Below, one piece after another: positions 282-26,622 of a stretch of DNA of 27,053 nt. Both the position numbers and the translations under genes were made by a program. Below the pieces are notes generated by a model that saw nothing but the letters and a program-made list of their open reading frames with translations, made no database searches and was not told where the DNA came from. The stretch is from contig JBMYTV010000012.1 of assembly GCA_049604715.1 (NCBI GenBank), forward strand, positions 1-27,053, in the 5' to 3' direction. Numbering within the stretch: the first letter of the stretch is position 1; every line of letters starts with the position of its first letter. The DNA is from Patescibacteria group bacterium. GTDB taxonomy: Bacteria > Patescibacteriota > Patescibacteriia > S139-126 > S139-133.

Positions 282-2879
282 TTACCTATTGGCAAACTGT
301 TTGCCTTCTTCTAGCTTAATAGACAGTAATTTTGACACACCATCATCACCCATGGTTACGCCGTATAGGAGTTGCGCTTGCTCCATGGTGGCTCTGTTGT
401 GCGTAACAACTATAAACTGTGTAGTGTCTGATAGTTCTTTTAAAATACTTGAAAAACGTGCTGAATTGGCTTCATCTAGTGCAGCATCAACCTCGTCAAG
501 AACCACGAATGGTGATTTATTATTGGCGATAATAGCGCAGATAAGTGCGATTGAGGTTAGTGCTTTTTCACCACCAGAGAGCATAGTGATATTTTGTAGA
601 CGTTTACCTGGTGGCGTTGCCATGATTTCGATACCTGAGATAGTTGTTTTTTGCTCTGATTCTTCTTCAGCTTCATCAGGTTGCTGAGTAACAACAGTGA
701 GAGCTGCTTTACCTCCATTAAAGAGGGTATTAAAGTAGTGAGAGAATTTTTTATTAATTTTTTCTAAATTCTCAGTAAATTGTTTTTCTATCTTTGCGTC
801 AAGATCTTTTATAACCTCTTGTAGTGAGTTGATTGCTTCAGTGAGGTCATTGATTTGATGCTCGAGCCATTCGTGTCGTTCTTTTATTTCAGCGTGTTCT
901 TGTTTGGTTTCTTCGTCAATGCTTCCGATAAGTTCTTTTTTGCGTTTAAGGTCCTGGATTTTTTTATCAAGTGCAGCATGGTTATCAATATTTACCTTGG
1001 TATGCAGTAGTTTTTCAACTTCACTAAATGAATTATCAAAGTCATGACTTGCATTTTCTTTAATATCTTCAAGTTTTGTTTGCAAACGAGCAAGTGTAAC
1101 CTCACACTGAGTGAGTTTGGTAGTAAGTGTATTTATTGATTGTTGTACAGAGGATGACTTTTGTTGTAAAGAGTATAATTCTTGTTTTTGCTTTTGATCT
1201 GATGCCGCTGCGTCACTAAGTTTTCTTTTTGCATTAGTAATCTTTTCATCAATAACAGAAATTTGCTCACTTAAAGTATCAATCTTTTCTTTTAATGAAA
1301 CTTCTTGTTCATCAGCTGGTGCTGAGTTTTCTAGTGCAGCCCGCTGCTCAGAAACATCTTCTAGTTCCTTTTCTTTTTGTTGAATAGTACTGGCTATGGT
1401 GTTCTGTGAACCTTTTGCGCTGCTAATAGTTGCAGTAAGATTTTGCAATTCAATGTCGAGTTCTTTTTTTCTTTTTTCAAGAGCATTTAACTCTTCTTGT
1501 AGGGCAAGTGTGTCGACTGATTCATCATCACCAGGAAGCTTATCAAGCTCTGTTTTACAGTCAGTAATAAGGGTATCCAAATCCTTTTGCGCATCAGAAA
1601 GTGAAATATTTTGTTTGATAGCAGTTGTTATTTGGTTCTCAAGTGCTGTGAAAAGTCCTTGCAAGTTTTCTTTTATTGTCTTGATGGTATCAGAGTTACT
1701 TACATCGGGTTGGAGGTGTGCAAACAATTTTTCTTGTAGAGAAGATATTTTTTTACTTAAAGTTTTGTACTCATCAGCTGTTGATTGTTGTTTATCTTGA
1801 GCTGCGCTAAGTTCGTTTTCGTGCTTTAGTAAAGACTCTTTTTGTTTCTTGATATCTTTTTGAAGAGTGCTTATTTGCTTTTCTATGAAAGAAAGATTGT
1901 GCTTGCCTGATTGTGCCCACTCGTTATCTAGTCGTGTTTGCCATTGTGTTTTTTCTTGAGAAAGTTGTTGTTTTTCAGCGAGTAGTGATTCATATGAATC
2001 CTGCAAAGTAGTTGTTTGTGTACTGTCGGTGTTGGTGGTGGCTAGCTTCTCCATTGAGTGTTGTAATTTTGCTAGCTCTTTTTCTAATGCCTCCTTTTCT
2101 TTAGTAATGGTGAGTTTGCTATCAAGTTGCTGCTTACTTTGGTCGGTTAGTTCATGCCATGCATGACTATAAAAGGCAACAAGCGAATCATGTAGCTCTT
2201 TCATGACCACTTCACGTTCATCATACCGCTTCATTTGGCGGTTTAAAGACTTTAACCTCGGGGTAATCTCGTTTAGCTGTAGAGTGCCTTGTGTTAGGTT
2301 CTCTTGCGCTTGCTCTAGTTTGTTTGTAGCCTGAGCCCGCTTTAGTTGGTATTGCTTAATACCAGCTGCTTCATCAAAAAATTCTTTACGGTCACTTGGT
2401 GTGCTGTTAAGAACAGCCGCGATAGTTCCTTGTCCAATGACAGTGTACGATCGCTGTCCAATATGTGCTTTTGCTAAGAGGTAGTGGATGTCTTGCAACC
2501 TACTTTTGTTGCCATTGATTAGATACTCACTGTCGCCGCTACGAAATAACTGACGTGATAGTTCCACTTCGCTATATCCAATATCCATAACCTCATCTTC
2601 ATTGTTGAGCTTTAAGCTGACTTGGGCTGATGAGTTGCGAGATTTTTTATCTGTTCCAGCAAAAATAACATCACCGGACTTTTTACCGCGAAGTTGTTTA
2701 GCTGATTGTTCGCCAAGGACCCATCTGATAGCATCAACTACATTTGATTTTCCTGAGCCATTTGGTCCAACAATAGCGGTAATGCCTAGGGTGCCGTTGT
2801 TTTTAGCTGGTTTAAAATCAATCGTGGTTTTGTTCGCGAATGATTTAAAACCGTGAAGTGTAAGGTGTTCTAGATACAT
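282..2879 (-). CDS. smc: SMC-family chromosome segregation ATPase (865 aa; no recognisable hinge)
   Basis: The N-terminus has the SMC Walker A head (FKSF...AIVGPNGSGKSNVVDAIRWVLGEQSAKQLRG). The C-terminus has the signature and Walker B (LSGGEKALTSIAL...PFVVLDEVDAALD...QFIVVTHN...LYGVTM). A long Q/E/K/S/T-rich coiled coil lies between them. Confidence 0.85.
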   Translation of the reverse strand: MYLEHLTLHGFKSFANKTTIDFKPAKNNGTLGITAIVGPNGSGKSNVVDAIRWVLGEQSAKQLRGKKSGDVIFAGTDKKSRNSSAQVSLKLNNEDEVMDIGYSEVELSRQLFRSGDSEYLINGNKSRLQDIHYLLAKAHIGQRSYTVIGQGTIAAVLNSTPSDRKEFFDEAAGIKQYQLKRAQATNKLEQAQENLTQGTLQLNEITPRLKSLNRQMKRYDEREVVMKELHDSLVAFYSHAWHELTDQSKQQLDSKLTITKEKEALEKELAKLQHSMEKLATTNTDSTQTTTLQDSYESLLAEKQQLSQEKTQWQTRLDNEWAQSGKHNLSFIEKQISTLQKDIKKQKESLLKHENELSAAQDKQQSTADEYKTLSKKISSLQEKLFAHLQPDVSNSDTIKTIKENLQGLFTALENQITTAIKQNISLSDAQKDLDTLITDCKTELDKLPGDDESVDTLALQEELNALEKRKKELDIELQNLTATISSAKGSQNTIASTIQQKEKELEDVSEQRAALENSAPADEQEVSLKEKIDTLSEQISVIDEKITNAKRKLSDAAASDQKQKQELYSLQQKSSSVQQSINTLTTKLTQCEVTLARLQTKLEDIKENASHDFDNSFSEVEKLLHTKVNIDNHAALDKKIQDLKRKKELIGSIDEETKQEHAEIKERHEWLEHQINDLTEAINSLQEVIKDLDAKIEKQFTENLEKINKKFSHYFNTLFNGGKAALTVVTQQPDEAEEESEQKTTISGIEIMATPPGKRLQNITMLSGGEKALTSIALICAIIANNKSPFVVLDEVDAALDEANSARFSSILKELSDTTQFIVVTHNRATMEQAQLLYGVTMGDDGVSKLLSIKLEEGKQFANR

Positions 2880-2899: not shown

Positions 2900-3592
2900 T
2901 TAGAGCCAGCCTTTTAGTTCAAGTGCTGCTCGAGCTGCGTTCATTTGTGCTTCCTGTTTAGATGAACCATCGCCTTGCGCGATCATATCTGGTCCTATGT
3001 ATACTGCAATAGTAAATTGTTTGTTGTGATCAGGGCCATCTTCATCAACAAGTTTGTAAGTAGGTGTGATACCATGCTTTTCTTGTGACATTTCTTGAAA
3101 GTGTGTTTTTGGATCAAGATAAAGCTTGTTTTCAAGAATATGCGGAAGTTTCGATAAGATATGTTCATGAATAAAATTGCTTGCTGCTTCAAATCCACTA
3201 TCAAGGTAAACTGCGCCAATAACAGCCTCCACAGTGTTGGCTAAGATGTAGTTACGTGCTTTGGTGTTTTTGTCTTTTGCTTCACCCTTTGACAAAAGTA
3301 GATATTCTTCAAGACCTAACGTTCGCCCTGTTTCAGCAAGGGACTGAGAGTTAACTAAACTGGCTCGCCAGTTAGTAAGCTCTCCTTCTGGGTTTGGGTA
3401 GTTGCGGTACAGGTATTCTGTTACCACAAGCTCAAGTACAGCATCTCCAAGAAACTCGAGTCGTTCATTGTGATCGAGTGAAAAAGAGTGATGCTCATTG
3501 AGGTATGAGCGGTGAACAAATGCTTGTTTGAGAAGTTTGGCATCACGGAAGGTGAGGCCCAAGTCATGTGCAACGTTTTCGTAATTTGTCAT
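2900..3592 (-). CDS. rnc: Ribonuclease III
   Basis: The RNase III signature ERLEFLGDAVLELVVTEYLY is present, with a C-terminal dsRBD-like tail (GPDHNKQFTIAV...GSSKQEAQMNAARAAL). The ATG is at 3590-3592. Confidence 0.9.
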   Translation of the reverse strand: MTNYENVAHDLGLTFRDAKLLKQAFVHRSYLNEHHSFSLDHNERLEFLGDAVLELVVTEYLYRNYPNPEGELTNWRASLVNSQSLAETGRTLGLEEYLLLSKGEAKDKNTKARNYILANTVEAVIGAVYLDSGFEAASNFIHEHILSKLPHILENKLYLDPKTHFQEMSQEKHGITPTYKLVDEDGPDHNKQFTIAVYIGPDMIAQGDGSSKQEAQMNAARAALELKGWL

Positions 3593-3697
3593 ATAAGTTT
3601 CATTTCGTTACACAACCTGCGATTATGCTTCTACAAAAACATACTCGTAGACTGTGAACACTAATTAGTATATATAGTATACCACGGAGGTGTGGTA

Positions 3698-4558
3698 TTA
3701 GTTTTTATTAAGAACTTGCTGGAAAATAGCCTTGGCTTGATCATAATCAAGCTTTTCCAAAACATCATCTTCAGGTACCCACTCAGCATTTTGAATCTCA
3801 GGATCTTTGGTGATTGAAAATTCTTGCTTTTCAACTTCACCTAGAAAAAGATGGATGGTTTTTGGTGTTGGTTTTTTGTTTGGTTCGTTAACTACTACAT
3901 CGATTTCACCTATTTTGTCATACAATGTGATGTTTTCAAGGCCAATTTCTTCATTGATTTCTCGCATAGCTGCATCGCGAAGGTTCTCGTCTCCAGAAAT
4001 TTTACCTTTAGGAAATGTCCATCTCCCATGTGCATCAAGTACGACCGCGTACATTTTCTTACCTTCCTCTTCGTAAAAAATAATACCACCAGCTGAAGTC
4101 TGTTGCTCGCCCATAGGGTTTTCCATGTCTTGCTTTTCTCCATCAGCTTGCATTTGTTTATAAATAGAGCCCAGAACGCCGTTAATAAACTTACCAGATG
4201 CATCGCCACCAAATGTTTTTGCTAGCTCAATAGCTTCATTAATAGCTACTTTTGGAGGAATTGTCTCAGAGAATTTTAATTCAAAAATGCCGATACGCAG
4301 TACATTGCGATCGACAAGTGTGATTTGCTCCAATGGCCACTCAGGAGCATACTTGGTAATCAAGTCATTAATAGCATCAATGTTTTTTCGTACACCTTCG
4401 AGGATATCTCGAGAAAAGTGCTTATCATCAAAATCAGGAGCAAACTCATCGAAGTTGTGTTCGAGCATAGACAACAAACCATCATCTGGCATTTGGTAAA
4501 AATCCCATTCAAATAAGGTTTGTAATGCTAATGTACGAGAAAGATGTCTATTTGCCAT
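3698..4558 (-). CDS. nusB: NusB antitermination factor fused to a C-terminal NUDIX hydrolase domain
   Basis: Residues about 1-135 carry NusB motifs (RHLSRTLALQTLFEWDF, DRNVLRIGIFEL, INEAIELAKTFGG..KFINGVLG). Residues about 150-286 carry a Nudix box (GKISGDENLRDAAMREINEEIGL). It is one uninterrupted 286-aa ORF. Confidence 0.75.
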   Translation of the reverse strand: MANRHLSRTLALQTLFEWDFYQMPDDGLLSMLEHNFDEFAPDFDDKHFSRDILEGVRKNIDAINDLITKYAPEWPLEQITLVDRNVLRIGIFELKFSETIPPKVAINEAIELAKTFGGDASGKFINGVLGSIYKQMQADGEKQDMENPMGEQQTSAGGIIFYEEEGKKMYAVVLDAHGRWTFPKGKISGDENLRDAAMREINEEIGLENITLYDKIGEIDVVVNEPNKKPTPKTIHLFLGEVEKQEFSITKDPEIQNAEWVPEDDVLEKLDYDQAKAIFQQVLNKN

Positions 4559-4573
4559 ACACCATTTGGTGTG

Positions 4574-4726
4574 TTATTTATTTTTTTCTAAGTCTTCTGG
4601 ACATGCGTGATGTCGTGGTACGACAGAACCATCTGCACAGAGTTTGTAGGGAGGAGTAGATACACCGTGATGCGCACGTCGTCGTCGGGTACGTCCCTTT
4701 GCTTGTCGTTTTTTCGGAACACTCAT
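4574..4726 (-). CDS. rpmF: 50S ribosomal protein L32
   Basis: My translation is MSVPKKRQAKGRTRRRRAHHGVSTPPYKLCADGSVVPRHHACPEDLEKNK. This matches the L32 pattern (VPKKKTSK.RR..RRSHHAL...C). It is in a different frame from the 75-aa ORF-track entry at 4578-4805, which is probably spurious. Confidence 0.65.
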   Translation of the reverse strand: MSVPKKRQAKGRTRRRRAHHGVSTPPYKLCADGSVVPRHHACPEDLEKNK

Positions 4727-4850
4727 AGCGGTTACAAGAGTAATAATAATAAGAGCACGGGGGTCTGATATAAAATATGCTAGAAAATTGCTCTCTAGCA
4801 GTCAAACTATAGCAAAAAAATACTATATTTGCAAGTTTTTAAGCCAAAAT

Positions 4851-4878
4851 AAAACCGCGCCAATAAATTGGCGCGGTT
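4851..4878 (-). terminator. Rho-independent terminator downstream of gyrA
   Basis: Perfect inverted repeat CCGCGCCAA/TTGGCGCGG. On the minus strand it is followed by TTTTATTTT, 17 nt after the gyrA stop. Confidence 0.55.
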
Positions 4879-4894: not shown

Positions 4895-7384
4895 CTATTC
4901 TTCGCTAATAAAAGCCACTGAAGCTACTTTATCACTTCCTACTTTGAACTTCATCAAGCGCACTCCTTGGGTTGCTCTACCAAGTACTGATACTCCTTTT
5001 TGCTCCAATCGAATAACTTGCCCACGATCTGACATAACAATAATATCTTGCTCAGCATCATTACTCACCACAGCCGCAGCTACAATAGAACCGGTCTTTC
5101 CAGTAATATTAGCGGTTTTTATACCACTACCTCCACGTCCTTGGACTTTGTACTCAGTGAGTTTTGATCGTTTGCCATAGCCTTTTTCTGTAACTACAAG
5201 CAATTGTTCGTTTGAACTAGCTTTTCCTTCATTGATAAGGTCCATACCAACTACATAATCTTCCTTTTTTAACCGGATTGCACGGACTCCGGCTGCAGTT
5301 CTGCCCATAGGTCTGATATCTTTTTCTTTAAATCTGATGGCTTGTCCCTTTGCAGTGGTAATAATAACATCATCTTTTCCACTCGATCCTTTTACCCACT
5401 GAAGTTCATCATCTCCTTTAAGTCCAAGTGCAATAAGTCCTGACCTTCTTACTTTTGCAAACTGCTCACGTTCTGTTTTCTTAATTTGGCCATGCTTAGT
5501 GACCATGACTAGGTATTTATTTTCGCGGGTGGTATCAAGTGCCCGAGCGGCTGTTACATGTTCTCCAGGTCCAAGCTGTAAAAAGTTGACCATGGCCTGA
5601 CCTTTGCTGGTACGTGATCCTTGTGGAATGTCATAGCCTTTGAGTTGGAATACACGGCCCTTGTTGGTGAAGAAGAGGATATCTGCATGTGTATGTGTGG
5701 TAAATAGGTCATCGACCATGTCTTCTTCTTTGGTTGTGAGACCAATAACACCCTTACCGCCTCGGCCTTGTTTCTTAAAGGTGTCAGTTGGTACACGTTT
5801 GATGTATCCGTCCTTGGTAATAAAGACTAGAGTTGCTTCATCAGGGATCAAGTCTTCTTGTGAAAATGAGTCAACTGGTGTTGGGATAATTTGTGTTTTG
5901 CGTTCATCGCCAAACTTTTCTTTGAGCTCAATTAGTTCCTCTTTTACAACACCCAAGATTTTTTTCTTGCTCTTCAAAAGATCCTCTAGGTCTTTGATAA
6001 GTTTCTTCTTTTCTTTGAGTTCCTCTTCTACGCGTAATCGTTCTAGGTTAGCAAGTTGTTGTAAGCGCATTTCAAGAATCGCAACTGACTGGCGTTCAGT
6101 CATCTTGAATTTTTTCATCAAGTTTTCCTTTGCTTCATCTCGGTCTTTTGACTTCTTAATAGTGTTGATGATTTTATCAATTTGCTCAAGTGCCATGACC
6201 AATCCCTCGAGGATGTGTGCTCGTTCTTTTGCGCGAGCAAGATCGTATTCAGCGCGGCGGACAATAACAACTTGTCTGTGCTTGATAAACTCTTCTAAGA
6301 TCTGTTTCAAACTCAAAGTCTTTGGCTGGATACCATCAATAAGCGCCACCATGTTAAATGGGAAGCTGGTTTGTAGCTGAGTCTGCTTGTATAGTTGGTT
6401 TAGAATCTTGTTCGGATAAGCATCCTTTTTGAGTTCAATAACAACACGTATACCATCTTTGTCTGATTCATCACGGAGATCTTTAATGCCGTCAATTTTC
6501 TTGTCCTTTACAAGCGAAGCAATTTTTTCAAGGAGATTTGTTTTGTTTACAGCATATGGGATTTCAGTAATAACAATCATAAACTGACCCTTCTTTGACT
6601 CAACAATATCAGCTCGTGAACGAATCACAACAGGGCCACGGCCAGTAGCATATGCTGTGCGTATGTCTTCTTTATTAAAAATAATACCGCGAGTAGGGAA
6701 GTCGGGTCCCTGAATAAATTGCATCAGATCATCAACATCAGCATCAGGGTTATCAATCAAATGCATGGTTCCATCTACAACTTCTGTTAGGTTGTGAGGT
6801 GGGATAGCTGTTGCCATAGCCACAGCAATACCAGTAACACCGTTGAGTAGAAGATTTGGAACCTTTGTTGGAAGAACAGTTGGTTCTTTTTGTGAGCCAT
6901 CATAGTTAGCGACAAAGTCAACAGTGTCTTTTTCTATATCAAGAAGCATCTCCTCGGCAAGTTGTGTCATTTTTGCCTCTGTATAACGCATTGCTGCAGC
7001 AGCATCACCATCAATAGATCCAAAGTTGCCCTGGCCGTTAACCAGTGGATAGCGCATTGAGAAGTCTTGCGCTAGGCGAACCAAACTATCGTAAATAGCT
7101 GAGTCGCCGTGGGGGTGATACTTTGCCATTACCTCACCAACAACATTTGCAGATTTTCTAAATTTTGCACTAGCACGAAGGCCATTAGTCCACATAGCAT
7201 ATAAGATGCGGCGATGCACTGGCTTCATACCATCACGCACATCTGGCAGTGCACGTGAGACAATAACACTCATAGCATAGTCAAGGTATGACTGCTGCAT
7301 TTCCTGCACAATTGGTTGTGGCTTGATAGTGCCAATGCTGTTTTTGGGTTCGTCTATTGTGTCTTTGGTTTTTTTACTAGGCAT
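4895..7384 (-). CDS. gyrA: DNA gyrase subunit A
   Basis: The N-terminus reads [29 protein letters not shown]. The catalytic region and a C-terminal beta-pinwheel with a GyrA-box-like QGRGGKGV are present. Length is 829 aa. Confidence 0.92.
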
Positions 7385-11018: not shown

Positions 11019-13082
11019 TTACTGGTTTGGTGTGGCCGTTGAATCGGCCGGCTGGGGTACGCCCAAACCATATTTATTTTGCATCATGCCGTTCAGTATA
11101 GTACCCATCAACGGATCAAGAAGAACGCCTTGTCCCGACTGAGCACCGCCGAGGTTTTGGGTGAAGACATCAGGAGTAATATCCGTTACACCCATTGCAT
11201 TAAGTCTGTCGAGCATTTCAAGTATGGCTACGTTCTGTGATCCGATAATATCGGCCATTGCCTCATACCGCGCGCGAAGTCCCTTGGCGATTTCTTCGTC
11301 ATACTTCCGCTGTGCTCGGCCTTTCCGTAGCATCTGCGTTTCTTCAAACGAAGCTTTTTCGCTGGCAATTTTGGCTTCCATCTTGACGGATTGCTGATCG
11401 GCTTCGGCTTTTTTCTCTTCCGCTTTGATACGCTCCTGCTGCTCCAGTTGCACCTGTTCCCATTTGAGTTTATTCTGTTCAGCCAGAACGCGCTCGGTTT
11501 GGGTCGTAAGCAGCGGCGTCGGAATATGAATTTTGCCGTAGTTAACATCCATTGTTATATAGCCCTTTGAAAGGGCCTGCATCCACATATCGGCGTACAT
11601 CAGACGTTCTTGCCGTTGACGATTTTGGAAGTAGTCCAGACACGGGACATCTTGAGCTGAATTTCTGATACTGGACCGGCTATCCGGGGTAATGGAACGG
11701 TTTTCGATTTCAATCCAGTTGCCCCACATGACAAAGGCATATGCTGCCTGGTCGCGGGTCACCTTGGCTTGAATTCTGTATTCAATAGCCATTCCAAAGC
11801 CATCCGAACTAATGGCGTCGCTGGCAAAGTCAGCGAGGCCTTCCGGTACTTTCTGATTCGATTTGAAAGTAATCCGGCCGGTTGAATCATTAACCGTAAA
11901 TCCACCTTTGTAGCTAAAGTTCTGACCCCTGGTAGAAATGGTTTTTATGTCCAAAGCTTCTCGGTGAAGCGCATACTCACCCTCGGTGAGAACATTCCAC
12001 CATACGCCCTGATACCCCTCGGGAACGAGCTTGGCTTCCACGACCATGTCTTTGGTCAGGTAGTTAAACTCTTCCGGGTAGTAGTTATGCCACTTTGAAT
12101 TTTTGTCATCCAGCCAGGTATAGTCGAATTCGGGATTTTGTTTGGTGGGTTTCCACTCAAACGGTGTCAACCCGGCTTCGATGGCAACCTGCTTAATCGG
12201 CCGATCATTTTCGGTCAAAAAGTCCGGGAACATCTTTTTCCACTTTTCGTCAGTGTAGAGTAGCTGATGGTTAAAACGCTTACCGTAGTTGCATTTGACT
12301 ATAGCCACCTCACCAGGCTTAACTTTTGTGGTTTCCAGGTCGATACTCCATTTCCACAGGTATTGATTGAAGCGATACGTACCCGGCCCAAAAGCAACTG
12401 ACTGAGGCCCTTTTTGGATGTGCTTAAGGGCATATTCGGCATCTTCCAGGATGCGCTTTTTATCAAGCTCTTCATCCCAAATAGGTGCGTACAGTTGTCC
12501 CGAGGGCATATCTTTTCCGTCACGGGCGATAAGTGTGAGTACTTTTCCGGCGGGGACGATAACATCTTCTTTTTCTTCCAGATGGTGCGTAAGTGTAAGC
12601 AGCGGAGCCCAGGTAAGTCCCGGGGGATAGATCCGCATTTGTGGTCCATTTTGACCGTCACGGGCAATAATTTGACCGGTTTCCAGTTCGGATCCAAAAT
12701 ATTTACGCTTCGCATGGACGCTATTATCTTGCGGTACGACAATGTAGAAAATAAGGAAGAGTCGCCAGAGGATTACCAGCACACCAATTAATAGCGGAAT
12801 GAGCGCAATTTTGCGCCACGCCACCGGGCTCAGGCTGGTAACAAAGCTGGGAGTATTTTGGATACGATCATATTGCTTTTTGAGCACCAAATACTCTTCG
12901 TATTCTTCACGGTCTTCATCACTCACCTCGTCATCGTTCCAAACGCTACGAAACTTTTGATTCAGGGTTTGATACCGACTGGAATCAAAAGTTTCGGATG
13001 ATACGCCGTAATTGCGTTTTATCCACCAACTGATTAAAACCAGTATAATTCCGCATCCGGTTCCAAATAACAATCCAAACAT
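11019..13082 (-). CDS. Large membrane protein, SPFH/flotillin-like (tentative); G+C-rich relative to neighbours
   Basis: A 687-aa ORF with two N-terminal TM segments and a central domain. The C-terminus has an EA/K-rich coiled coil (EEKKAEADQQSVKMEAKIASE...AKGLRARYEAMADIIG) and a Gly-rich tail, reminiscent of flotillin/YqiK. Hand-counted 60-nt lines give about 45-58% G+C versus about 38% nearby. Confidence 0.6.
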   Translation of the reverse strand: MFGLLFGTGCGIILVLISWWIKRNYGVSSETFDSSRYQTLNQKFRSVWNDDEVSDEDREEYEEYLVLKKQYDRIQNTPSFVTSLSPVAWRKIALIPLLIGVLVILWRLFLIFYIVVPQDNSVHAKRKYFGSELETGQIIARDGQNGPQMRIYPPGLTWAPLLTLTHHLEEKEDVIVPAGKVLTLIARDGKDMPSGQLYAPIWDEELDKKRILEDAEYALKHIQKGPQSVAFGPGTYRFNQYLWKWSIDLETTKVKPGEVAIVKCNYGKRFNHQLLYTDEKWKKMFPDFLTENDRPIKQVAIEAGLTPFEWKPTKQNPEFDYTWLDDKNSKWHNYYPEEFNYLTKDMVVEAKLVPEGYQGVWWNVLTEGEYALHREALDIKTISTRGQNFSYKGGFTVNDSTGRITFKSNQKVPEGLADFASDAISSDGFGMAIEYRIQAKVTRDQAAYAFVMWGNWIEIENRSITPDSRSSIRNSAQDVPCLDYFQNRQRQERLMYADMWMQALSKGYITMDVNYGKIHIPTPLLTTQTERVLAEQNKLKWEQVQLEQQERIKAEEKKAEADQQSVKMEAKIASEKASFEETQMLRKGRAQRKYDEEIAKGLRARYEAMADIIGSQNVAILEMLDRLNAMGVTDITPDVFTQNLGGAQSGQGVLLDPLMGTILNGMMQNKYGLGVPQPADSTATPNQ

Positions 13083-13212
13083 ATTTTACTCCTTCCAAGA
13101 AAACTCTTGGTTTTTGTTGCTGTGAATTGGTCTATCTTCGAATTAGTTTAGTCTAACTGTGTGTTGATGTAGATATCTGATTGTGTGTTATTAAAAAACG
13201 TCAAGGTGCAAT

Positions 13213-13242
13213 TTGACATCAAAATTTATCACAAAATATTAA
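13213..13242 (+). promoter_or_regulatory. Candidate promoter TTGACA-N18-TATTAA for the flippase/ligase operon
   Basis: It lies in the divergent intergenic region, about 60 nt upstream of the ATG at 13300. Confidence 0.3.
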
Positions 13243-13299
13243 AATTGTCAAGTTGTAAGGAATGTTGTCTATCCTCTCAACTCACCATATAATACCAGT

Positions 13300-14721
13300 A
13301 TGTTAAAACACTTATTACAACACAGTATGATCCACGCAGCCGGCCGTGTTATTGGTCTTGGTATTAGTGTGGTTAGTATGGGTTTGCTTGCTCGGTACTT
13401 AGGACAAGAACAATTTGGTTGGTATATAATTGCATTTACTTGGCTGCAGTTTTTCTCTATTGCTGTGGACTTTGGTCTTTATATGATCGGTCTGAAGCTA
13501 CTAGGCGAAGCAGGTACAAAGGCAAGAGAACAAAAAGTATTCTCTCAACTTTTTTGGTTGCGTCTTTTTAGTGCGATAATTTTTGTACTTATTGCGCCAA
13601 ACATAGTGTGGCTCATGCCATATAGTATCGGCATAAAGCTTGGTGTGACTGTTTTGGCATTTTCATTTTTCTTTGCCAACATCAATCAGCTTTTGGTAGT
13701 TAGTTTTCAAAAAACAGTACGCATGCAAACCGTTGCTATCGCAGAAGTATTTGGCAAAATCACAGCTCTTATTTCTTTGTATATAGTTATACTGTTTGAT
13801 TTTGGTTTTGCAGCTGCTCTTGCAAGCATTGCATTCTTTGGACTTTTGCAGTCAGTTGTTTTGTTTTTAAAACTAACACCAGAACATTACATTTCATGGC
13901 ATTGGGACAGTGCTTTAGTAAAAAAGATACTTATACAAACAGCGCCGCTTGGGATTATTATTATTTTAAATACATTGTACTTCAAAGCAGATACCCTTAT
14001 TCTGTCGTGGTTTGTGCCTGCTGGAGAGGTTGGTTTGTATGGAGCGCCTTATAAAATCTTAGAGATTTTAGTTTCATTTCCAGCAATGTACCTAGGGTTG
14101 CTACTTCCCCATGTAGCTCAGTGGTACAAAAAGCGTCAATACAAAACACTTCGTGCATATGCTGAACAAAGCTTTCGTATTATGTCACTCCTGATAGCAG
14201 TAATGATCCCACTGACTATTGTTTTTGCCGATGACATCATGGTTTTGGTTGCTGGTAGAGATTTTGCTGCATCAGGTTTGTGGCTTCGGTATTTGATTAT
14301 TGCTGCTGCAAGTATTTTTTATGGACAGCTCTTTGGATATATTTTGGTGGGTATTGGCAGACAAAAAGTCCAAATGGTTATTTATGCAGCAGTGGCAGCA
14401 ATAGCTCTCATGCTCTATAGCGTATTTATCCCTTTAGCCGGAGTTGTTGCAGCTGCTATTATCACAATAGTTGTTGAAGTCACAGCTACGGTGGCGCTTG
14501 GTATACAGGCAGTGAAGTTTTTACGTTGGAATATACAAGTTATCCCAATCATTATCCTTACCTTGATAGCAATTGGAGTTGGTGTATTTGCCTGGCTCAT
14601 GCAGCCATACGGGCCTTGGTGGGTTATTTTCTTGTTGAGTTGTGCCGTATATCTGGTGCTTATTTTGTTATTTAGAATTGTAACAATTCAACAAATACAA
14701 ACATTAATTAAACGAGCATGA
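13300..14721 (+). CDS. Polysaccharide/lipid-linked oligosaccharide flippase (MOP/Wzx-like, polytopic)
   Basis: A 473-aa ORF with about 12 predicted TM helices and an N-terminal motif typical of Wzx/MurJ-like MOP exporters. It overlaps the next gene in an ATGA arrangement. Confidence 0.7.
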   Translation: MLKHLLQHSMIHAAGRVIGLGISVVSMGLLARYLGQEQFGWYIIAFTWLQFFSIAVDFGLYMIGLKLLGEAGTKAREQKVFSQLFWLRLFSAIIFVLIAPNIVWLMPYSIGIKLGVTVLAFSFFFANINQLLVVSFQKTVRMQTVAIAEVFGKITALISLYIVILFDFGFAAALASIAFFGLLQSVVLFLKLTPEHYISWHWDSALVKKILIQTAPLGIIIILNTLYFKADTLILSWFVPAGEVGLYGAPYKILEILVSFPAMYLGLLLPHVAQWYKKRQYKTLRAYAEQSFRIMSLLIAVMIPLTIVFADDIMVLVAGRDFAASGLWLRYLIIAAASIFYGQLFGYILVGIGRQKVQMVIYAAVAAIALMLYSVFIPLAGVVAAAIITIVVEVTATVALGIQAVKFLRWNIQVIPIIILTLIAIGVGVFAWLMQPYGPWWVIFLLSCAVYLVLILLFRIVTIQQIQTLIKRA

Positions 14722-16289: not shown

Positions 16290-16390
16290 ATCTTATCAAG
16301 AGTGAGCTGAGGGAATCGGCCCTGCGACGCTCCGGCAACTTGCCTATATGGTAAAGTGCTTCTTCCGACCCATTCTTGGGGAAGATAAGT
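16290..16390 (+). promoter_or_regulatory. SAM-I (S-box) riboswitch aptamer
   Basis: The sequence reads TCTTATCAAGAGTGAGCTGAGGGAATCGGCCCTGCGACGCTCCGGCAAC...GGGGAAGATAAG. It matches the S-box consensus (P1 CTTATC/GATAAG; AGAGNGG.GGAGGGA..GGCCC..GA.GC.CGGCAAC) directly upstream of metK. Confidence 0.7.
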
Positions 16391-16423
16391 CAGTTTATAT
16401 ACCTTCTCAGGAGGTATTTTTTT

Positions 16424-16473: not shown

Positions 16474-17511
16474 ATGTCTTTATTACCCGCAACATATACA
16501 GCCGAAAGTGTAACTAGCGGTCATCCAGATAAAATTTGTGATGCTATAGCTGATAGTATTCTTGATTCGTGTCTACAGCAAGACAGTGAAAGCCGTGTTG
16601 CTGTTGAGTGCTTTGGCTCGCATGGGCAGTTATTTATAGGTGGGGAGGTTACAACTCAAGCTCATGTAGATTACAAAACAATCGCCCAGCACTTATATAG
16701 CGCTATTGGCTATGAGGACAATTTGGATATTACTGTCGCTGTAGCAGAACAATCCAGTGACATAGCTGATGGTATCAAAGACGATGGTGCAGGCGATCAA
16801 GGAATCATGTATGGATACGCATGTAATAGTACTGAGGAATTTTTGCCTTTGGGTGTTGTACTTGCTCATAAACTTACGCAAAGACTCGAGTTTGTTAGAA
16901 GACAGGGAGTTCTCCCGTGGCTGAGGCCTGACGGAAAAGCTCAGGTGACTATTAGTAATGGCAGAGTTGTTGCTGTTGTGGTTAGCACGCAGCATTCAAG
17001 TGGGATTAGCTTGGAGGAATTGCGCGCTCAAATAATACAATACATAGTCGAGCCATTGATCGATGTGAGTGCTGTGAAGAGTATATATATCAATCCTGCT
17101 GGAACTTTTACTATAGGTGGTTTCGCAGCGGATAGTGGATTAACTGGAAGAAAAATAATGGTTGATACCTATGGGGGTGTTGTTGTGCATGGAGGCGGGT
17201 CTTTCTCTGGGAAAGATGCATCAAAAGTAGATCGTTCTGGTGCATATATGGCCCGTTACGCTGCCAAAAGTATCGTAAGTCAGGGAAATGCAAAAGAGTG
17301 CTTGGTTTCAGTTGCGTATGCTATTGGCAAGAAAGAGCCGGTAATGCTTATGGCTGTAAATGAAAACGGTGAAGATATCCAGGAGATACACAGTTTTGAC
17401 TTCAAACCAAAATCAATCATTTCACATTTGGGATTGCTCAGGCCTATTTTTGGTAGAACAAGTAACTATGGTCATTTTGGAAAAAATATTTACCCATGGG
17501 AAAACGTATAG
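16474..17511 (+). CDS. metK: S-adenosylmethionine synthetase
   Basis: ESVTSGHPDKICDAIADSILD and GAGDQGIMYGYA motifs are present. An AAGGA RBS lies 7 nt upstream of the ATG. Confidence 0.92.
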   Translation: MSLLPATYTAESVTSGHPDKICDAIADSILDSCLQQDSESRVAVECFGSHGQLFIGGEVTTQAHVDYKTIAQHLYSAIGYEDNLDITVAVAEQSSDIADGIKDDGAGDQGIMYGYACNSTEEFLPLGVVLAHKLTQRLEFVRRQGVLPWLRPDGKAQVTISNGRVVAVVVSTQHSSGISLEELRAQIIQYIVEPLIDVSAVKSIYINPAGTFTIGGFAADSGLTGRKIMVDTYGGVVVHGGGSFSGKDASKVDRSGAYMARYAAKSIVSQGNAKECLVSVAYAIGKKEPVMLMAVNENGEDIQEIHSFDFKPKSIISHLGLLRPIFGRTSNYGHFGKNIYPWENV

Positions 17512-18081: not shown

Positions 18082-18429
18082 ATGTCAGAGAAAGCAAAAG
18101 ATCAGGAGTTTGTTGAATACGTCATTAAGGCGATTGTCGACAATCCAGACGCAGTATCAACTGAGCGAACAGTTGATGAAATGGGTGTTCTTTTAACACT
18201 CAAAGTTGCCCCAGAAGATATGGGTAATGTTATTGGCCGTAGTGGTCAAACCGCACGCGCAGTGCGAACATTGCTTCGTGTTGTTGGTGCAAAGAACAAT
18301 TCACGTGTTAACTTGAAGATTTATGAACCAGAAGGTTCTCGCAAGAACCATCGTTCACAATCAAGTGAAGCGCCTGCAATGGACGAAGATACACCAGATC
18401 CAACTAGTCTTGATGATTTGAACTTGTAA
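18082..18429 (+). CDS. khpA: KH-domain RNA-binding protein (KhpA/YlqC, UPF0109-like) with acidic C-terminal extension
   Basis: Has a KH GxxG motif in context (VIGRSGQTARAVRTLLRV) and the typical N-terminal part (EYVIKAIVDNPDAV...LKVAPEDMG). Confidence 0.7.
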   Translation: MSEKAKDQEFVEYVIKAIVDNPDAVSTERTVDEMGVLLTLKVAPEDMGNVIGRSGQTARAVRTLLRVVGAKNNSRVNLKIYEPEGSRKNHRSQSSEAPAMDEDTPDPTSLDDLNL

Positions 18430-19848: not shown

Positions 19849-20172
19849 TTATGCGGAATTTTGTCTTTGAAAGTGTTTGATGCCAGCATATCGGCCGGTT
19901 ATAAGCGCGCCTATTATTGCTAAAGCAAAAACAATGACAATAGGATACTCTTTCACGACTGACAGGGTATAGTACACGGCCCATGTTAGTGGTACAATCC
20001 CGATCATAAAAACAGGAATGCCCCACGGGATGCAGATGGGTTTGATAATTTCCCAGGCAGTTGGTATTGATTCAGAAGTGGTTACTAGCTTGTCTTCTGA
20101 CTCTTCCCAAAGATAAGAAAGGATGCCAGATGTGGCAAGAATTGCAATACAGCAGAGGAAAAAGAGGATCAT
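19849..20172 (-). CDS. Small 3-TM membrane protein, array member 2
   Basis: A 107-aa protein with the same TM1-loop-TM2-TM3 layout. Its C-terminal TM (PIVIVFALAIIGALITGRYAG) resembles that of member 4. Confidence 0.5.
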   Translation of the reverse strand: MILFFLCCIAILATSGILSYLWEESEDKLVTTSESIPTAWEIIKPICIPWGIPVFMIGIVPLTWAVYYTLSVVKEYPIVIVFALAIIGALITGRYAGIKHFQRQNSA

Positions 20173-20528
20173 GTTAAGTCTCCTTTCGCTTTTCTGTATT
20201 TAAGCTTCTTCCACAGTATTTCCGTCACCACATGCAGGATTAGTCCGGCAGCTATGGTGATGGCAATTACCACCCACCAGCATATTTCAAGTTTTTTGGC
20301 GAAGGGCCATGATTCTATAATGATCCAGACAAACCCGATGATAACACCGAAAAGAAATACATACATGTATTTCTTTTCTAGAAAGTGTCGCCAGTAGTCT
20401 TGAAACCGAGTAGTACCATTCGGACGTTGATAAAGAAGTTCGTGTATTATAGACTCAACTTCAACGTGTCTGATAGTTAGGGCTATCACACACACGATAT
20501 ACAATACATACGCATAAAAAACATCCAT
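20169..20528 (-). CDS. Small 3-TM membrane protein, array member 3
   Basis: A 119-aa protein with the same layout. Its stop overlaps the start of member 2 (ATGA), suggesting translational coupling. Confidence 0.5.
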   Translation of the reverse strand: MDVFYAYVLYIVCVIALTIRHVEVESIIHELLYQRPNGTTRFQDYWRHFLEKKYMYVFLFGVIIGFVWIIIESWPFAKKLEICWWVVIAITIAAGLILHVVTEILWKKLKYRKAKGDLT

Positions 20529-20539
20529 TGGCAGCTCCT

Positions 20540-20923
20540 TTAAGCTTTTGTACTGATTTTGATAAAAAACACCTTACCTTTGAAATGCCTGTTACCAACC
20601 AATAAGCCGATAAAAGCACTGGCGACCGTAATGACAGTCGGGAAAGCATACATGCCCACGTCAGTTGGTACTGGCGATGACAGGAATACGATGATGCCGA
20701 TCCAAAGTCCAACAATCGCCAGAATAATTGATATCAGCGACGGGACCCAGATTTTTTTTAAAGAGATAAACTCTTTAAAAGTTTTGTACTTCTTTTCTGG
20801 CCGTTGTAATATTTTGACGTTATACGTCAATTCAGCCATGGCCAGCAGGAGAAAAACTAAGATGATGCACCAAATAACAAACATACCAAACATGGTAGAT
20901 ACCTCACAAAGAAAATTAAACAA
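20540..20923 (-). CDS. Small 3-TM membrane protein, array member 4
   Basis: A 127-aa protein with the same layout. Its C-terminal TM (PTVITVASAFIGLLVGNRHFKG) is similar to that of member 2. Confidence 0.5.
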   Translation of the reverse strand: MFNFLCEVSTMFGMFVIWCIILVFLLLAMAELTYNVKILQRPEKKYKTFKEFISLKKIWVPSLISIILAIVGLWIGIIVFLSSPVPTDVGMYAFPTVITVASAFIGLLVGNRHFKGKVFFIKISTKA

Positions 20924-20987
20924 ACATAATTATAAAGGTGCTGCCTGCGCAATTTACAACGTTTTTACTGATATGTAAAGTTTAAAT

Positions 20988-21022
20988 TATAAAACCTTCT
21001 GCAAATTGCAGAAGGTCAGTAT
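20988..21022 (-). repeat. Hairpin-terminator repeat, copy C (ACCTTCTGC-AAATT-GCAGAAGGT)
   Basis: A perfect 9-bp stem. On the minus strand it is followed by TTTT, about 20 nt downstream of the gene ending at 21041. Confidence 0.6.
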
Positions 21023-21040
21023 TGTTTTCAAGGAGTAGCA

Positions 21041-21355
21041 TTATGCTTGTTTTGATCTCTTTCTTTTCTTTCTAAAGAGACTTTTAAAATCGATTTCCTT
21101 GATGTAGGGTATAGCCCATGAGATGAATATCCCGAGTGTCACTGAGATGAGAAATAAGCCCATATGACCCATTGACTGCCACTTGGTCATCTGCGTTGGT
21201 ATGACAATAAAGTGACCAATAACAGACACAGCGAGCAATCCGTAGCTAATAAGATTATCATCTTCTTCGTGGTGCCATGCCCAGAATATCATGCCGCTTG
21301 AAGTTGCGTAACCAATGATTATAAAGATTAACCCAATATTTGTTTCCATATGCAT
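21041..21355 (-). CDS. Small 3-TM membrane protein, array member 5
   Basis: A 104-aa protein with three hydrophobic helices and a basic C-terminal tail (RKKRKRSKQA). Confidence 0.45.
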   Translation of the reverse strand: MHMETNIGLIFIIIGYATSSGMIFWAWHHEEDDNLISYGLLAVSVIGHFIVIPTQMTKWQSMGHMGLFLISVTLGIFISWAIPYIKEIDFKSLFRKKRKRSKQA

Positions 21356-21391
21356 CCTCTTGTTAAATGAGTGTATTACTAATACTTGGTG

Positions 21392-21745: not shown

Positions 21746-21855
21746 AATAACTCTCCTTTACTAAGATGGAAATGGAAGTATTATTTCAGTTTTACGTTTG
21801 GTGTGAACAATAACACCATCTGATTCATACCAGACATAGTCTGCGTGGTATTGTT

Positions 21856-22194: not shown

Positions 22195-22212
22195 GGCTAT
22201 CTCCTGTTGTTA

Positions 22213-22671: not shown

Positions 22672-22752
22672 AATACATCCTCTTTTTTAGGGTTTGAATT
22701 ATATTTGCTTTTAGGTTATTCTCAAACTGTATTTATTTGTCTAAGTGCTGTG

Positions 22753-24833: not shown

Positions 24834-24863
24834 TTGACATTTTGCTAAGAATACGGCTATAAT
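24834..24863 (+). promoter_or_regulatory. rRNA operon promoter candidate TTGACA-N18-TATAAT
   Basis: Consensus -35 and -10 hexamers lie about 290 nt upstream of the 16S 5' end. Confidence 0.5.

Positions 24864-25152: not shown

Positions 25153-26622
<1,470 letters not shown>

Follow-up and report, generated by a model that had tools for sequence, protein, structure and literature searches.

What does a transcription antitermination factor do with a Nudix domain on its C-terminus? Textbooks describe NusB as a transcription factor of one domain. It pairs with ribosomal protein S10/NusE to bind BoxA in nascent rRNA leaders, which nucleates the antitermination/processing complex. The window, by which we mean the whole 27,053-nucleotide stretch of Patescibacteria DNA analysed here, holds a nusB gene in which this factor appeared to be joined in frame to a second domain, and we evaluated whether the fusion is real, how widely it is kept, and what its Nudix half might recognise.

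A single polypeptide with a NusB and a Nudix domain

The nusB::nudix ORF (3698-4558, minus strand) runs uninterrupted from an ATG start through 286 aa to its stop codon, as read from the ORF list and the sequence. An earlier note had described a complete NusB and a Nudix box in this single 286-aa ORF, and a Pfam search bore this out by placing two domains in the one reading frame, with PF01029 (NusB) at residues 7-134 (E=3e-34, model positions 3-133 of 133) and PF00293 (NUDIX) at residues 158-277 (E=5e-18), both at scores well past the gathering scores. The C-terminal half thus matches a NUDIX profile, as the note had proposed to check, and the position it gave for the ORF held; the strand, on which it was silent, turned out to be minus. 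The window gene encodes a single polypeptide with a canonical NusB at its N-terminus and an Ap4A-hydrolase-type Nudix domain at its C-terminus.

The NusB domain takes up residues 1-138 (4145-4558, minus strand; TIGR01951 and AF2 model), with seven helices within residues 2-138 of the AF2 model, the last of which, alpha7, spans residues 119-138. The NCBIfam equivalog TIGR01951 matched residues 4-135 with 128 bits (cut-off 88.35; model positions 2-130 of 131), T. maritima NusB (E=4e-26) and E. coli NusB (E=2e-18) were both matched over their full length, and Foldseek superposed the AF2 model on 1tzv (TMt 0.83, rmsd 1.8 A, identity 40%) and on 3r2c/3r2d (TMt 0.88). The BoxA site of NusB runs along the C-terminal helix alpha7, where in E. 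coli F122 stacks on U8 of BoxA and the neighbouring K121 also contacts BoxA (PMC3177189). These two residues align with K123 and F124 of the window protein, which are invariant across 120 relatives.

The linker between the halves (DGEKQDMENPMGEQ, residues 139-152; 4103-4144, minus strand, from the translation) carries a conserved G140-E141-K142 and starts at residue 139, where the BoxA-contacting helix alpha7 ends in the AF2 model. It forms the lowest-confidence block of that model (pLDDT 69 for residues 141-150), which as a whole reached a pLDDT of 92.6 and a pTM of 0.65. Such a pTM lends no support to a fixed NusB/Nudix interdomain interface, and the model suggests that a flexible linker of about 14-20 residues tethers the Nudix domain to NusB.

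An ORF of this kind could be an artefact, with adjacent nusB and Nudix genes joined by a frameshift or a missed stop at the junction (about 4100-4160), which the earlier note had marked as the place to look. The linker, however, is in frame and 19-24 residues long in all 120 closest relatives, with GEK nearly invariant, and because it is in frame in every one of them we exclude a frameshift or missed stop; the relatives come from independent NCBI, JGI, ENA and Logan assemblies that include contigs of 0.7-1.0 Mb. With the same architecture and linker length in 120/120 relatives, the GEK motif conserved and most related genome loci fused (below), we regard an artefact as so improbable that it can be set aside.

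The fusion is ancient and widespread in Patescibacteria

Searching related genomes for the same fusion, as the note had also proposed, revealed both domains in each of the best 120 database relatives (277-304 aa, identity down to 49%) and a fused gene in 77 of the 80 best species-level genome loci. All fused relatives that bear a lineage name are Patescibacteria, and the fusion is retained from the most basal branches onward; it is ancient and widespread in this group, counting at least 77 species-level genomes and probably hundreds. Some MAGs carry the labels 'Gammaproteobacteria', 'Proteobacteria' or 'uncultured Saccharibacteria'; their loci have the Patescibacteria-type operon, and we did not take these labels as evidence of a spread outside Patescibacteria.

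Fused proteins are currently labelled plain 'NusB' in databases, and the public protein P0001, identical to the window protein, is likewise named just 'NusB' at its source. The architecture is therefore invisible in annotations. We found no paper on a NusB-Nudix fusion in the literature on NusB, Nudix and CPR/Patescibacteria, and the fusion appears to be undescribed so far.

Operon context and a candidate BoxA

The fused gene sits in a conserved block in the order rpmF - nusB::nudix - rnc - smc. The first gene of the presumed operon, rpmF (ribosomal protein L32, Pfam Ribosomal_L32p; 4574-4726, minus strand), lies 15 nt upstream, rnc (RNase III, Pfam RNase III + dsrm; 2900-3592, minus strand) follows 105 nt downstream, and smc (282-2879, minus strand, from its ORF translation) closes the block, so that the placement between rpmF and rnc claimed by the earlier note is correct, with rpmF upstream and rnc downstream in the direction of transcription. 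Across related loci, viewed with flanks of up to 10 kb, rpmF holds the same position in L001-L003, L005, L052 and L091, rnc is directly downstream of nusB in 83 of 85, SMC comes after rnc in most, and the gene order is the same even in P0205 and P0167, the fusions that have diverged furthest. A consensus scan picked up a terminator-like hairpin past gyrA (4853-4878, minus strand) and promoter-like hexamers upstream of rpmF (4746-4834, minus strand), the latter with no more matches than in shuffled sequence, and the start of the operon is tentatively predicted between gyrA and rpmF. Published work connects Nus factors with RNase III and 30S biogenesis (PMC6614801).

The window also contains a 16S rRNA gene (25154-26622, plus strand, Rfam) behind a leader with a near-consensus promoter (TTGACA at 24834-24839 and TATAAT at 24858-24863, plus strand, from sequence). 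Reading the leader directly and comparing it with the leader of locus L001 revealed a candidate BoxA, GCTTATTTTGAACAA (24953-24967, plus strand), which is the best conserved block between these two sequences (GCTGATTGAAAACAA in L001), differs from the E. coli consensus at 4 of 13 positions, and lies about 30-85 nt downstream of the leader 5' end by promoter prediction. We tentatively take this element as the presumed RNA target of the NusB domain. Scanning the window with GYTCTTTRANA and one mismatch allowed gave 16 matches where 12 were expected and none in the 16S leader, BoxA consensuses of the E. coli and B. subtilis types came no closer than 3-5 mismatches in the leader and spacer, and a search of the leader for a BoxB-like hairpin gave folds no better than shuffled sequence (z = 0.14 and 0.31).

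The Nudix half resembles Ap4A hydrolases

The Nudix domain, residues 153-286 (3701-4102, minus strand), is Ap4A-hydrolase-like by Pfam, profile search and Foldseek. Its Nudix box, GKISGDENLRDAAMREINEEIGL (residues 185-207; 3938-4006, minus strand, from the translation), fits GX5EX7REUXEEXGU exactly, the AF2 model gives this half a mixed sheet with a box helix at 193-205, and the catalytic E191, R199, E200, E203 and E204 are invariant in the 120 closest relatives. Judged by these residues, the window copy looks catalytically competent.

The subfamily of the C-terminal half, which the earlier note had left to be assigned, came out of a family-profile search as the Ap4A-hydrolase-like group (aq_158, NUDT2, CT771). 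The best match was PDB 3i7u, the Aquifex aq_158 Ap4A hydrolase (E=1.5e-24), and the same search returned CT771 (9e-17), NUDT2 (2e-15), the C. elegans Ap4A hydrolase (7.5e-15), Ndx1 (6.5e-14) and the Dcp2 Nudix domain (3e-10). Foldseek agreed, aligning the Nudix half with 3i7u at TMt 0.89 and rmsd 1.8 A, and its top 23 matches were without exception ApnA hydrolases or MutT1. Other Nudix subfamilies carry markers of their own, namely a Pro at +16 for ADP-ribose pyrophosphatases, SQPWPFPxS for NudC, and the NuCoA motif upstream of the box for CoA pyrophosphatases. An ADP-ribose pyrophosphatase was rejected on this marker, the window having V223 at +16 and an invariant Pro at +19, and NudC and CoA pyrophosphatase were rejected with both of their motifs missing from the sequence; NUDT12/NudC-type structures gave weak profile matches at about 1.6e-6.

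The earlier note had hinted at RNA 5' ends by naming RppH, a Nudix enzyme that converts 5'-ppp RNA to 5'-p RNA. The Nudix domain in this hint stands and the RppH family does not, with scores of at most 34 bits against cut-offs of at least 116, the best NCBIfam RppH model reaching 34.3 bits against a cut-off of 118, and E. coli RppH absent among the top 60 profile matches. A 'tethered RppH' is one reading of the fusion, and not an established one.

Several residues of the Nudix domain are strongly conserved, W180, K184, P226, K233, W260 and Y272 being invariant or nearly so in the 82 fused loci examined (K233 is Arg in a few, and P226 varies in three). In the profile alignment, K184, K233 and Y272 fall on K36, K83 and Y121 of the C. 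elegans Ap4A hydrolase, which we take to be its two phosphate-binding lysines and its second stacking Tyr. A Tyr 16-18 residues past the Nudix box is said, following Dunn et al. in 1999, to mark the Ap4A hydrolase subfamily, and no Tyr was found at +16 to +18 of the window, which has V223, N224 and E225 there. The C. elegans Y76, presumably the first adenine-stacking Tyr, and its human equivalent align with E225/P226. The first stacking Tyr is absent, and the binding pocket therefore differs from those of characterised Ap4A hydrolases.

These likenesses bear on what the domain binds, and one possibility is a free nucleotide (an NpnN such as Ap4A, an oxidised NTP, or (p)ppGpp), hydrolysed in the window's clade; on the rRNA transcription complex the domain would either clear non-canonical initiating nucleotides locally or serve as an effector domain adjusting antitermination to nucleotide status. 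Its nearest relatives of solved structure are all free-nucleotide enzymes (Ap4A and Ap6A hydrolases, MutT1/Rv2985), and the Nudix domain is acidic (median pI 5.2; net charge -11 in the window copy), a composition that does not suggest an extended RNA-binding surface. Against a free nucleotide stand the loss of the first stacking Tyr seen in Ap4A hydrolases, the poorer structural match to NrtR (TMt 0.65, rmsd 7 A) and the lack of an obvious reason for joining a free-nucleotide enzyme to an RNA-binding factor; we consider this reading unlikely. NUDT2, from the same Ap4A-hydrolase-like group, has been reported to trim 5'-PPP RNA to 5'-P RNA (PMC8616924).

Repeated decay of the active site and loss of the domain

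Evaluating the Nudix box across the family revealed two clades that treat it differently. In the window's own clade (clade A) the box is intact in 130 of 135 members, whereas in clade B, a Paceibacteria-type sister clade, the canonical REx2EE is missing in 44 of 67 loci, the losses following no fewer than 15 distinct patterns (RS..EK in L022 and KA..KE in L063, for example) and requiring about 19 Fitch changes (independent events). The 'dead' copies of clade B are all intact ORFs, five of five tested pass the Pfam NUDIX threshold, and their mean Nudix-domain identity of 0.52 sits beside 0.57 for intact clade B copies and 0.49 for clade A. They keep the domain, the phosphate-binding lysines and the stacking tyrosine, and away from the active site several motifs particular to clade B are strongly conserved (VHDvFGyWTL, GLD..WF and Y.DI.P). 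Because catalytic residues decay repeatedly while the domain stays, the role shared across the family is probably binding rather than hydrolysis. Phosphate-binding and stacking residues kept alongside decayed catalytic glutamates are also the signature of a ligand-binding Nudix domain, which favours the free-nucleotide reading as well.

The same pattern could mean that, in an antitermination complex specific to Patescibacteria, the Nudix fold acts as a scaffold or protein-protein element and that hydrolysis is incidental. The level of constraint is unchanged after repeated loss of catalytic residues, the conserved motifs of clade B lie outside the active site, and SuhB provides a precedent (PMC6614801; see also PMC4807359 and PMC6614797). 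Yet the residues conserved in both clades, K184, K233 and Y272, are the phosphate binders and base stackers of homologues, and their conservation therefore points to a ligand pocket and not a protein interface; the catalytic box is moreover invariant in the window's clade. We judge a purely structural role improbable.

Relatives outside the fusion behave differently. Of 118 stand-alone relatives, at least 112 have an intact box, and no fewer than four of the other six are pieces of fusion proteins; box decay thus appears essentially confined to fused proteins. For the closest stand-alone relatives P0127, P0128, P0133 and P0146, which lie on short contigs, we found no link to a nusB/rnc neighbourhood; their neighbours are nitroreductase, HAD, acetyltransferase and glycerate kinase genes. 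P0223, a near relative, is fused to a RelA/SpoT-type HD_4 domain. A second Nudix gene near trmD in L001 was considered as a paralogue and rejected, since it belongs to another subfamily and is similar in the box only. Within the fused clade, three nested lineages (L052, L073 and L075) have lost the Nudix half by deletion while NusB, rnc and the operon remain, and the domain is therefore dispensable for NusB function.

Such loss, which left the operon undisturbed, would fit a history in which a housekeeping Nudix hydrolase had simply joined NusB during genome streamlining and worked independently of transcription, with the fusion ensuring co-expression only; the closest non-fused relatives are indeed small stand-alone enzymes in unrelated neighbourhoods, and the pTM of the model suggests a flexible tether. 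A purely enzymatic passenger, however, should vanish or decay as a whole after losing its catalytic residues, and the 44 'dead' copies are full-length and as conserved as the intact ones, box decay is essentially limited to fused proteins, and the fusion is kept from the most basal branches onward. This makes unrelated functions decidedly improbable. The HD_4 fusion of P0223 speaks for its part in favour of a free nucleotide.

A possible reader of 5' polyphosphates in rRNA antitermination

The explanation we favour, tentatively and at somewhat less than an even chance, is that NusB tethers a module which recognises the 5'-polyphosphate end of the nascent, BoxA-bearing rRNA leader and, in the window, hydrolyses it. 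The Nudix domain would be a recognition module for a nucleoside-5'-polyphosphate group that NusB positions beside the nascent leader RNA, and its most likely ligand would be the triphosphate at this leader's own 5' terminus, or else a dinucleoside-polyphosphate cap there; that the ligand is RNA is something we purely infer. In the window's clade, where the active site is intact, the 5' polyphosphate would be hydrolysed to a monophosphate, and with a monophosphate end the leader fragment cut free by RNase III, the product of the next gene, would become open to decay. In the Paceibacteria-type clade, which has lost the metal-binding glutamates and kept the phosphate-binding and base-stacking residues, the ligand would be bound without cleavage. 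A wider formulation, which we find possible and on balance doubtful, is that Patescibacteria built a nucleotide-polyphosphate reader into their rRNA antitermination complex, sensing a leader 5'-triphosphate or NpnN cap or else a nucleotide alarmone, with ABY1-type members such as the window cleaving co-transcriptionally and Paceibacteria members non-catalytic.

The fusion suggests that the rRNA transcription complex of these bacteria reads or trims a nucleotide or an RNA 5' end, and its conservation across one of the largest bacterial radiations suggests a physical coupling of antitermination to nucleoside-polyphosphate recognition. If the ligand is an RNA 5' end, antitermination, RNase III processing and 5'-end-dependent decay or decapping, which are separate topics in model bacteria, would be joined; if it is a free nucleotide, an unknown signal would control rRNA synthesis in organisms with very few regulators. 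Should the reader hypothesis be true, a Nus factor would for the first time be found to carry an enzymatic or ligand-sensing domain, and co-transcriptional 5'-end processing would for the first time be seen built into a bacterial elongation complex. The natural series of intact, catalytically decayed and domain-deleted versions in otherwise identical operons offers an unusually clean experimental handle.

Comparison with known systems

Compared to the NusB of E. coli, T. maritima and Aquifex aeolicus, residues 1-138 of the window protein are a full-length NusB, with the signature IPPKVAINEAIELAK...SGKF.NGVLG and 40% identity to the T. maritima protein. Canonical NusB ends at alpha7, whereas the window protein adds about 150 C-terminal residues (linker and Nudix domain), and its gene is set in an rpmF-nusB-rnc block.

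For the added half, Ap4A/ApnA hydrolases (Aquifex 3i7u, human NUDT2, the C. elegans enzyme, Chlamydia CT771, T. thermophilus Ndx1 and M. tuberculosis Rv2985/MutT1) are the closest matches both by sequence profile and by structure. With the ApnA hydrolases it has in common the W-x-F-P-K-G before the box, the PKT strand lysine, the C-terminal stacking Tyr, and a Glu six residues ahead of the conserved Trp. Unlike them, it is fused to NusB, has a family-specific E-P-N-K loop, its P226 invariant or nearly so, in place of the first stacking Tyr, and reaches no NCBIfam equivalog. The likeness to RppH (E. coli NudH, B. subtilis YtkD and Bdellovibrio Bd0714) would be functional only, under the hypothesis we favour, and PDB matches to RppH, that of Bd0714 among them (E=1.8e-6), are confined to the Nudix box.

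Among two-domain and multi-protein systems, Dcp2 likewise places an all-helical regulatory domain ahead of a catalytic Nudix domain, one that acts on RNA 5' ends, but its N-terminal domain is unrelated to NusB and two-domain superpositions gave an rmsd of 12-15 A. NrtR, in which a Nudix domain without catalysis serves as the effector module of a transcription factor, resembles the free-nucleotide reading; it binds DNA through a winged-helix domain and is a weak structural match to the window protein (TMt 0.65). A 'metabolic enzyme' fold at work beside NusB has a precedent in SuhB, part of the rRNA antitermination complex of E. coli; its fold is that of an inositol monophosphatase on a separate polypeptide, with no homology to the Nudix half implied. 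The RsmB/Sun 16S rRNA methyltransferase, like the window protein, joins an RNA-binding module of NusB fold to a second domain, which in RsmB is RNA-modifying, and RsmB models match the NusB half of the window weakly, over the RsmB N-terminal region. In RsmB, however, the NusB-like domain is a diverged paralogue and its partner a methyltransferase, whereas in the window NusB is orthologous and its partner is a Nudix domain.

A single reading frame joining NusB to a Nudix domain

As the earlier note had proposed, NusB and Nudix domains are encoded in one uninterrupted ORF at 3698-4558. This ORF, here nusB::nudix, lies on the minus strand (286 codons, ATG start) and has Pfam matches to NusB (PF01029, residues 7-134, E=3e-34) and, in the C-terminal half, to NUDIX (PF00293, residues 158-277, E=5e-18). 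The Nudix-box peptide quoted there, GKISGDENLRDAAMREINEEIGL, is encoded at 3938-4006 (-) and agrees with every defined position of GX5EX7REUXEEXGU. The gene neighbours were also correctly described, with nusB::nudix lying on the transcribed strand directly after rpmF (L32; 4574-4726, -) and before rnc (RNase III; 2900-3592, -). After rnc comes smc (282-2879, -), and gyrA (4895-7384, -) precedes rpmF. Because a strong terminator-like hairpin lies 3' of gyrA and weak promoter-like hexamers lie 5' of rpmF, the four genes rpmF, nusB::nudix, rnc and smc plausibly form one operon.

Two side features of this region were observed. A perfect 8-bp hairpin (ATACCACGGAGGTGTGGTAT, 3679-3698) overlaps the nusB::nudix stop codon in the 105-nt gap to rnc; it has no T-run after it on the coding strand, so is no typical terminator, and could be a site for RNase III or other processing. 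The SMC encoded here is 865 aa long (850-887 aa in relatives, e.g. 11934-14486 of the related locus L001), compared with ~1,180 aa in model organisms, which implies a shortened coiled coil.

That an assembly or sequencing artefact joined two genes is scarcely credible, as the same architecture and linker length recur across independent assemblies. Among the 120 best relatives (100% to 49% identity; from NCBI, JGI, ENA and Logan assemblies), 120/120 are proteins of 277-304 aa with both Pfam domains that keep the linker length (19-24 residues between fixed columns) and the nearly invariant G-E-K motif, which disposes of a frameshift or missed stop. An identical protein is already public in a Patescibacteria MAG, named only 'transcription antitermination factor NusB'. 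Scanning one genome per species yielded at least 597 related loci, and the same fusion is encoded in 77 of the best 80 species-level loci. Linkage to rnc is invariable: in 83 of 85 loci the RNase III gene comes immediately after nusB, with SMC usually next, and even the loci of the most divergent fused proteins found (P0205 and P0167, 36-39% identity) have the order (yceD-)rpmF - nusB::nudix - rnc. Several fusion-bearing records (L009, L010, L014, P0005) are titled 'Gammaproteobacteria' or 'Proteobacteria' despite a typical Patescibacteria operon, and many other such MAGs are titled 'uncultured Candidatus Saccharibacteria'; these titles look like placeholder or erroneous labels.

The N-terminal half as NusB

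The NusB half scores 128 bits against the NCBIfam equivalog TIGR01951 (cut-off 88.35) and aligns end to end with the NusB proteins of T. maritima (E=4e-26) and E. coli (E=2e-18). Seven helices make up this half in an AlphaFold2 model (mean pLDDT 92.6); Foldseek superposes them on 1tzv (TMt 0.83, 40% identity) and, at TMt 0.88, on the Aquifex NusB of the NusB-NusE-BoxA complex. Stagno et al. (PMC3177189) place the BoxA site along the C-terminal helix alpha7 of NusB, with F122 stacking on U8 of BoxA where NusB meets NusE. The aligned partners of E. coli K121 and F122 are K123 and F124 here, both invariant among 120 relatives, and median identity to the window protein is 66% for the NusB half versus 40% for the Nudix half. 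From these alignments and the model we conclude that the N-terminal half is probably the organism's functional NusB. The linker starts at residue 139, directly after alpha7, and therefore the Nudix domain hangs ~14-20 residues from the RNA-binding helix; the pTM of 0.65 gives no indication of a fixed NusB/Nudix interface.

Fusion, deletion and inactivation

In a rough neighbour-joining tree of NusB domains (a distance tree of ~135 columns, rooted on E. coli with T. maritima as second outgroup), all fused proteins form one clade with P0167, P0205, P0182 and P0188 basal, a history that appears to comprise one old fusion, one deletion and many inactivations. The three NusB-only proteins found (L052 'Kerfeldbacteria', L073, L075) form one small clade nested beside the window's own subclade, and their genes stop 10-30 codons past the linker 'GE', with rnc 35-62 nt further. 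The Nudix segment was deleted in this lineage, and NusB can therefore do without it.

Of the 135 members that make up the window's clade (at least 49% identity; titled records are Komeilibacteria and relatives), 130 have canonical residues at the catalytic positions (E191, R199, E200, E203, E204). Its sister clade (L016-L085), with titles including Paceibacterota, Nomura-, Giovannoni-, Taga-, Taylor-, Ryan- and Niyogibacteria, retains the canonical set in just 23 of its 67 loci; all such clade names follow depositors' record titles, some clearly placeholders. The other 44 show at least 15 patterns, such as RK..EE, RE..EK, RS..EK, RS..QK, KK..EE, RV..DE and KA..KE, and Fitch parsimony on the tree requires ~19 changes from an intact root. 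In MutT and other Nudix enzymes the box glutamates bind the catalytic metal ions, so little or no activity is to be expected of these variants. E203 is the counterpart of E58 in human NUDT2, the residue mutated in PDB 4ijx. Within one nine-species clade (L018, L022, L026, L027, L036, L039, L043, L044, L081; Nudix box at ~4550-4620 in each locus) the box decays stepwise from RE..EK through RS..EK to RS..QK, with the adjacent motifs WTL(V/P)K(S/G) and PEKGK..K fixed throughout, a natural mutational series for probing a non-catalytic function.

The 'dead' domains, i.e. fused copies lacking the canonical box, are full-length ORFs, and all five tested exceed the Pfam NUDIX threshold. Their conservation is on a par with that of intact copies: mean pairwise identity is 0.52, compared with 0.57 for intact sister-clade copies and 0.49 for the window's clade, and they keep W180, K184, P226, K233 (sometimes Arg), W260 and Y272 along with strong clade-specific motifs. 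Stand-alone relatives keep the box in 112 of 118 cases, and of the six that do not, at least four are fusion-protein fragments. Such constraint on 'dead' domains, together with the box kept in stand-alone proteins, argues that the selected family-wide function depends on ligand pocket and fold and not on hydrolysis. Our comparison thus shows an intact predicted active site in the window's lineage and, in the sister lineage, a retained pocket with seemingly decayed catalysis. A Nudix fold acting as a SuhB-like structural subunit is an improbable reading, and an unrelated passenger enzyme is more improbable still, as 'dead' domains are retained.

Affinities of the Nudix half

The subfamily of the C-terminal half, which the earlier note had left to be assigned, could be placed as Ap4A-hydrolase-like by profile and structure searches. 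A profile built from 20 family members and run against every PDB sequence matched Aquifex aeolicus Ap4A hydrolase aq_158 over its full length (E=1.5e-24), followed by Chlamydia CT771 (9e-17), human NUDT2 (2e-15), C. elegans Ap4A hydrolase (7.5e-15), T. thermophilus Ndx1 (6.5e-14), M. tuberculosis Rv2985/MutT1 (2e-12) and Dcp2 (3e-10). Foldseek placed 3i7u at TMt 0.89 and 1.8 A rmsd, with nothing but ApnA hydrolases and MutT1 among its top 23 matches. The nature of all its solved relatives and the acidity of the domain (pI ~5) favour an enzyme or sensor for free nucleotides (Ap4A, NpnN or others) that acts on the complex or regulates it, a reading that we nevertheless regard as unlikely.

Membership in RppH was rejected. 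No NCBIfam equivalog was reached by the Nudix half, with the MutT1 and RppH models at 29-35 bits against cut-offs of 116-475; Bdellovibrio RppH matched the profile through the Nudix box only (1.8e-6), and E. coli RppH was absent from the top 60 PDB matches.

Searched exhaustively on its own, the Nudix half gave 4,102 relatives at E<=1e-3, the closest no better than 39% identical. Eight of the best 150 carry a NusB domain (two of these being fragments), and the rest are mostly stand-alone proteins of ~140 aa that share the overall motif pattern. Other fusions among near relatives join Nudix to a RelA/SpoT-type HD_4 domain (P0223), to polynucleotide-kinase-3'-phosphatase/HAD (P0247), to PDZ (P0126) or to a second Nudix (P0132, P0155, P0210, P0227), the first two again pairing Nudix with nucleotide-alarmone or nucleic-acid-end chemistry.

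A proposed role at the rRNA leader

The full-length 16S rRNA gene (25154-26622, +; 1,469 nt) is followed by tRNA-Ile(GAT), the 16S-tRNA stretch spanning 25154-26973 (+), and has a near-consensus sigma-70 promoter (TTGACA 24834-24839, 18-nt spacer, TATAAT 24858-24863). The best conserved stretch between this leader and that of L001 is a candidate BoxA, GCTTATTTTGAACAA (24953-24967, +), which reads GCTGATTGAAAACAA at 18367-18381 of L001. Promoter prediction puts the leader 5' end ~85 nt (window) or ~30 nt (L001) upstream of this block; folds of the 16S leaders were not significant.

RNase III cuts pre-16S out of a leader-spacer duplex. We propose that the Nudix domain would recognise a nucleoside-5'-polyphosphate beside the BoxA-bound leader RNA, preferably the 5' end of that same leader, and that a tethered pyrophosphohydrolase may tag the excised leader, with its BoxA and 5' triphosphate, for decay that depends on the 5' end. 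A functional link between Nus factors and RNase III exists in 30S biogenesis (PMC6614801; see also PMC10250234), and NUDT2, a relative of the Nudix half, reportedly converts 5'-PPP RNA to 5'-P RNA (PMC8616924). A tethered pyrophosphohydrolase acting on the leader's own 5' end is a tentative reading, to which we give somewhat less than an even chance.

Other features of the window

A SAM (S-box) riboswitch (16290-16391, +; 65 bits, above the gathering score) lies upstream of metK (S-adenosylmethionine synthetase, 16474-17511), an ordinary arrangement. Between khpA (18082-18429) and trmD (22660-23412), seven consecutive small ORFs (19849-22671, -; 104-152 aa, most strongly hydrophobic) have no Pfam match; in L001 this position is taken by a stand-alone Nudix gene (142 aa) from another subfamily. 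The adjacent ORFs 23475-23834 and 24007-24726 (+) share a ~60-aa motif, G[FY]Y.VHYG...GY..C[YF]...W[YM].Y..H..I..GERV.KP.H, in one and two copies, respectively, and match no Pfam family beyond a sub-threshold UCH match.

Comparison with known systems

Full-text literature searches found no paper mentioning a NusB-Nudix fusion, and source annotations label the fusion proteins plain 'NusB'. Since each domain is familiar and precomputed Pfam matches already reveal the architecture, the fusion is not categorically new; its novelty lies in the combination, with a Nudix module covalently joined to a Nus factor and conserved across a major radiation, and with a natural series in which the module is intact, inactivated or deleted. 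The candidate BoxA, which rests on two sequences, departs from the E. coli consensus, and its stretch between GCU and AACAA exceeds that of the E. coli BoxA by 3 nt. The Nudix half resembles Ap4A hydrolases in its closest sequence and structure matches and in K184, K233 and Y272, which align with C. elegans K36 and K83, presumably phosphate-binding lysines, and Y121, which we take to be one of two adenine-stacking tyrosines. It differs from them at the position of Y76, presumably the other stacking tyrosine, where E225/P226 stand within a family-specific E-P-N-K loop, and because this one subfamily marker fails, we file the predicted Ap4A-hydrolase-like domain as 'related to' the subfamily and not as 'a member of' it.
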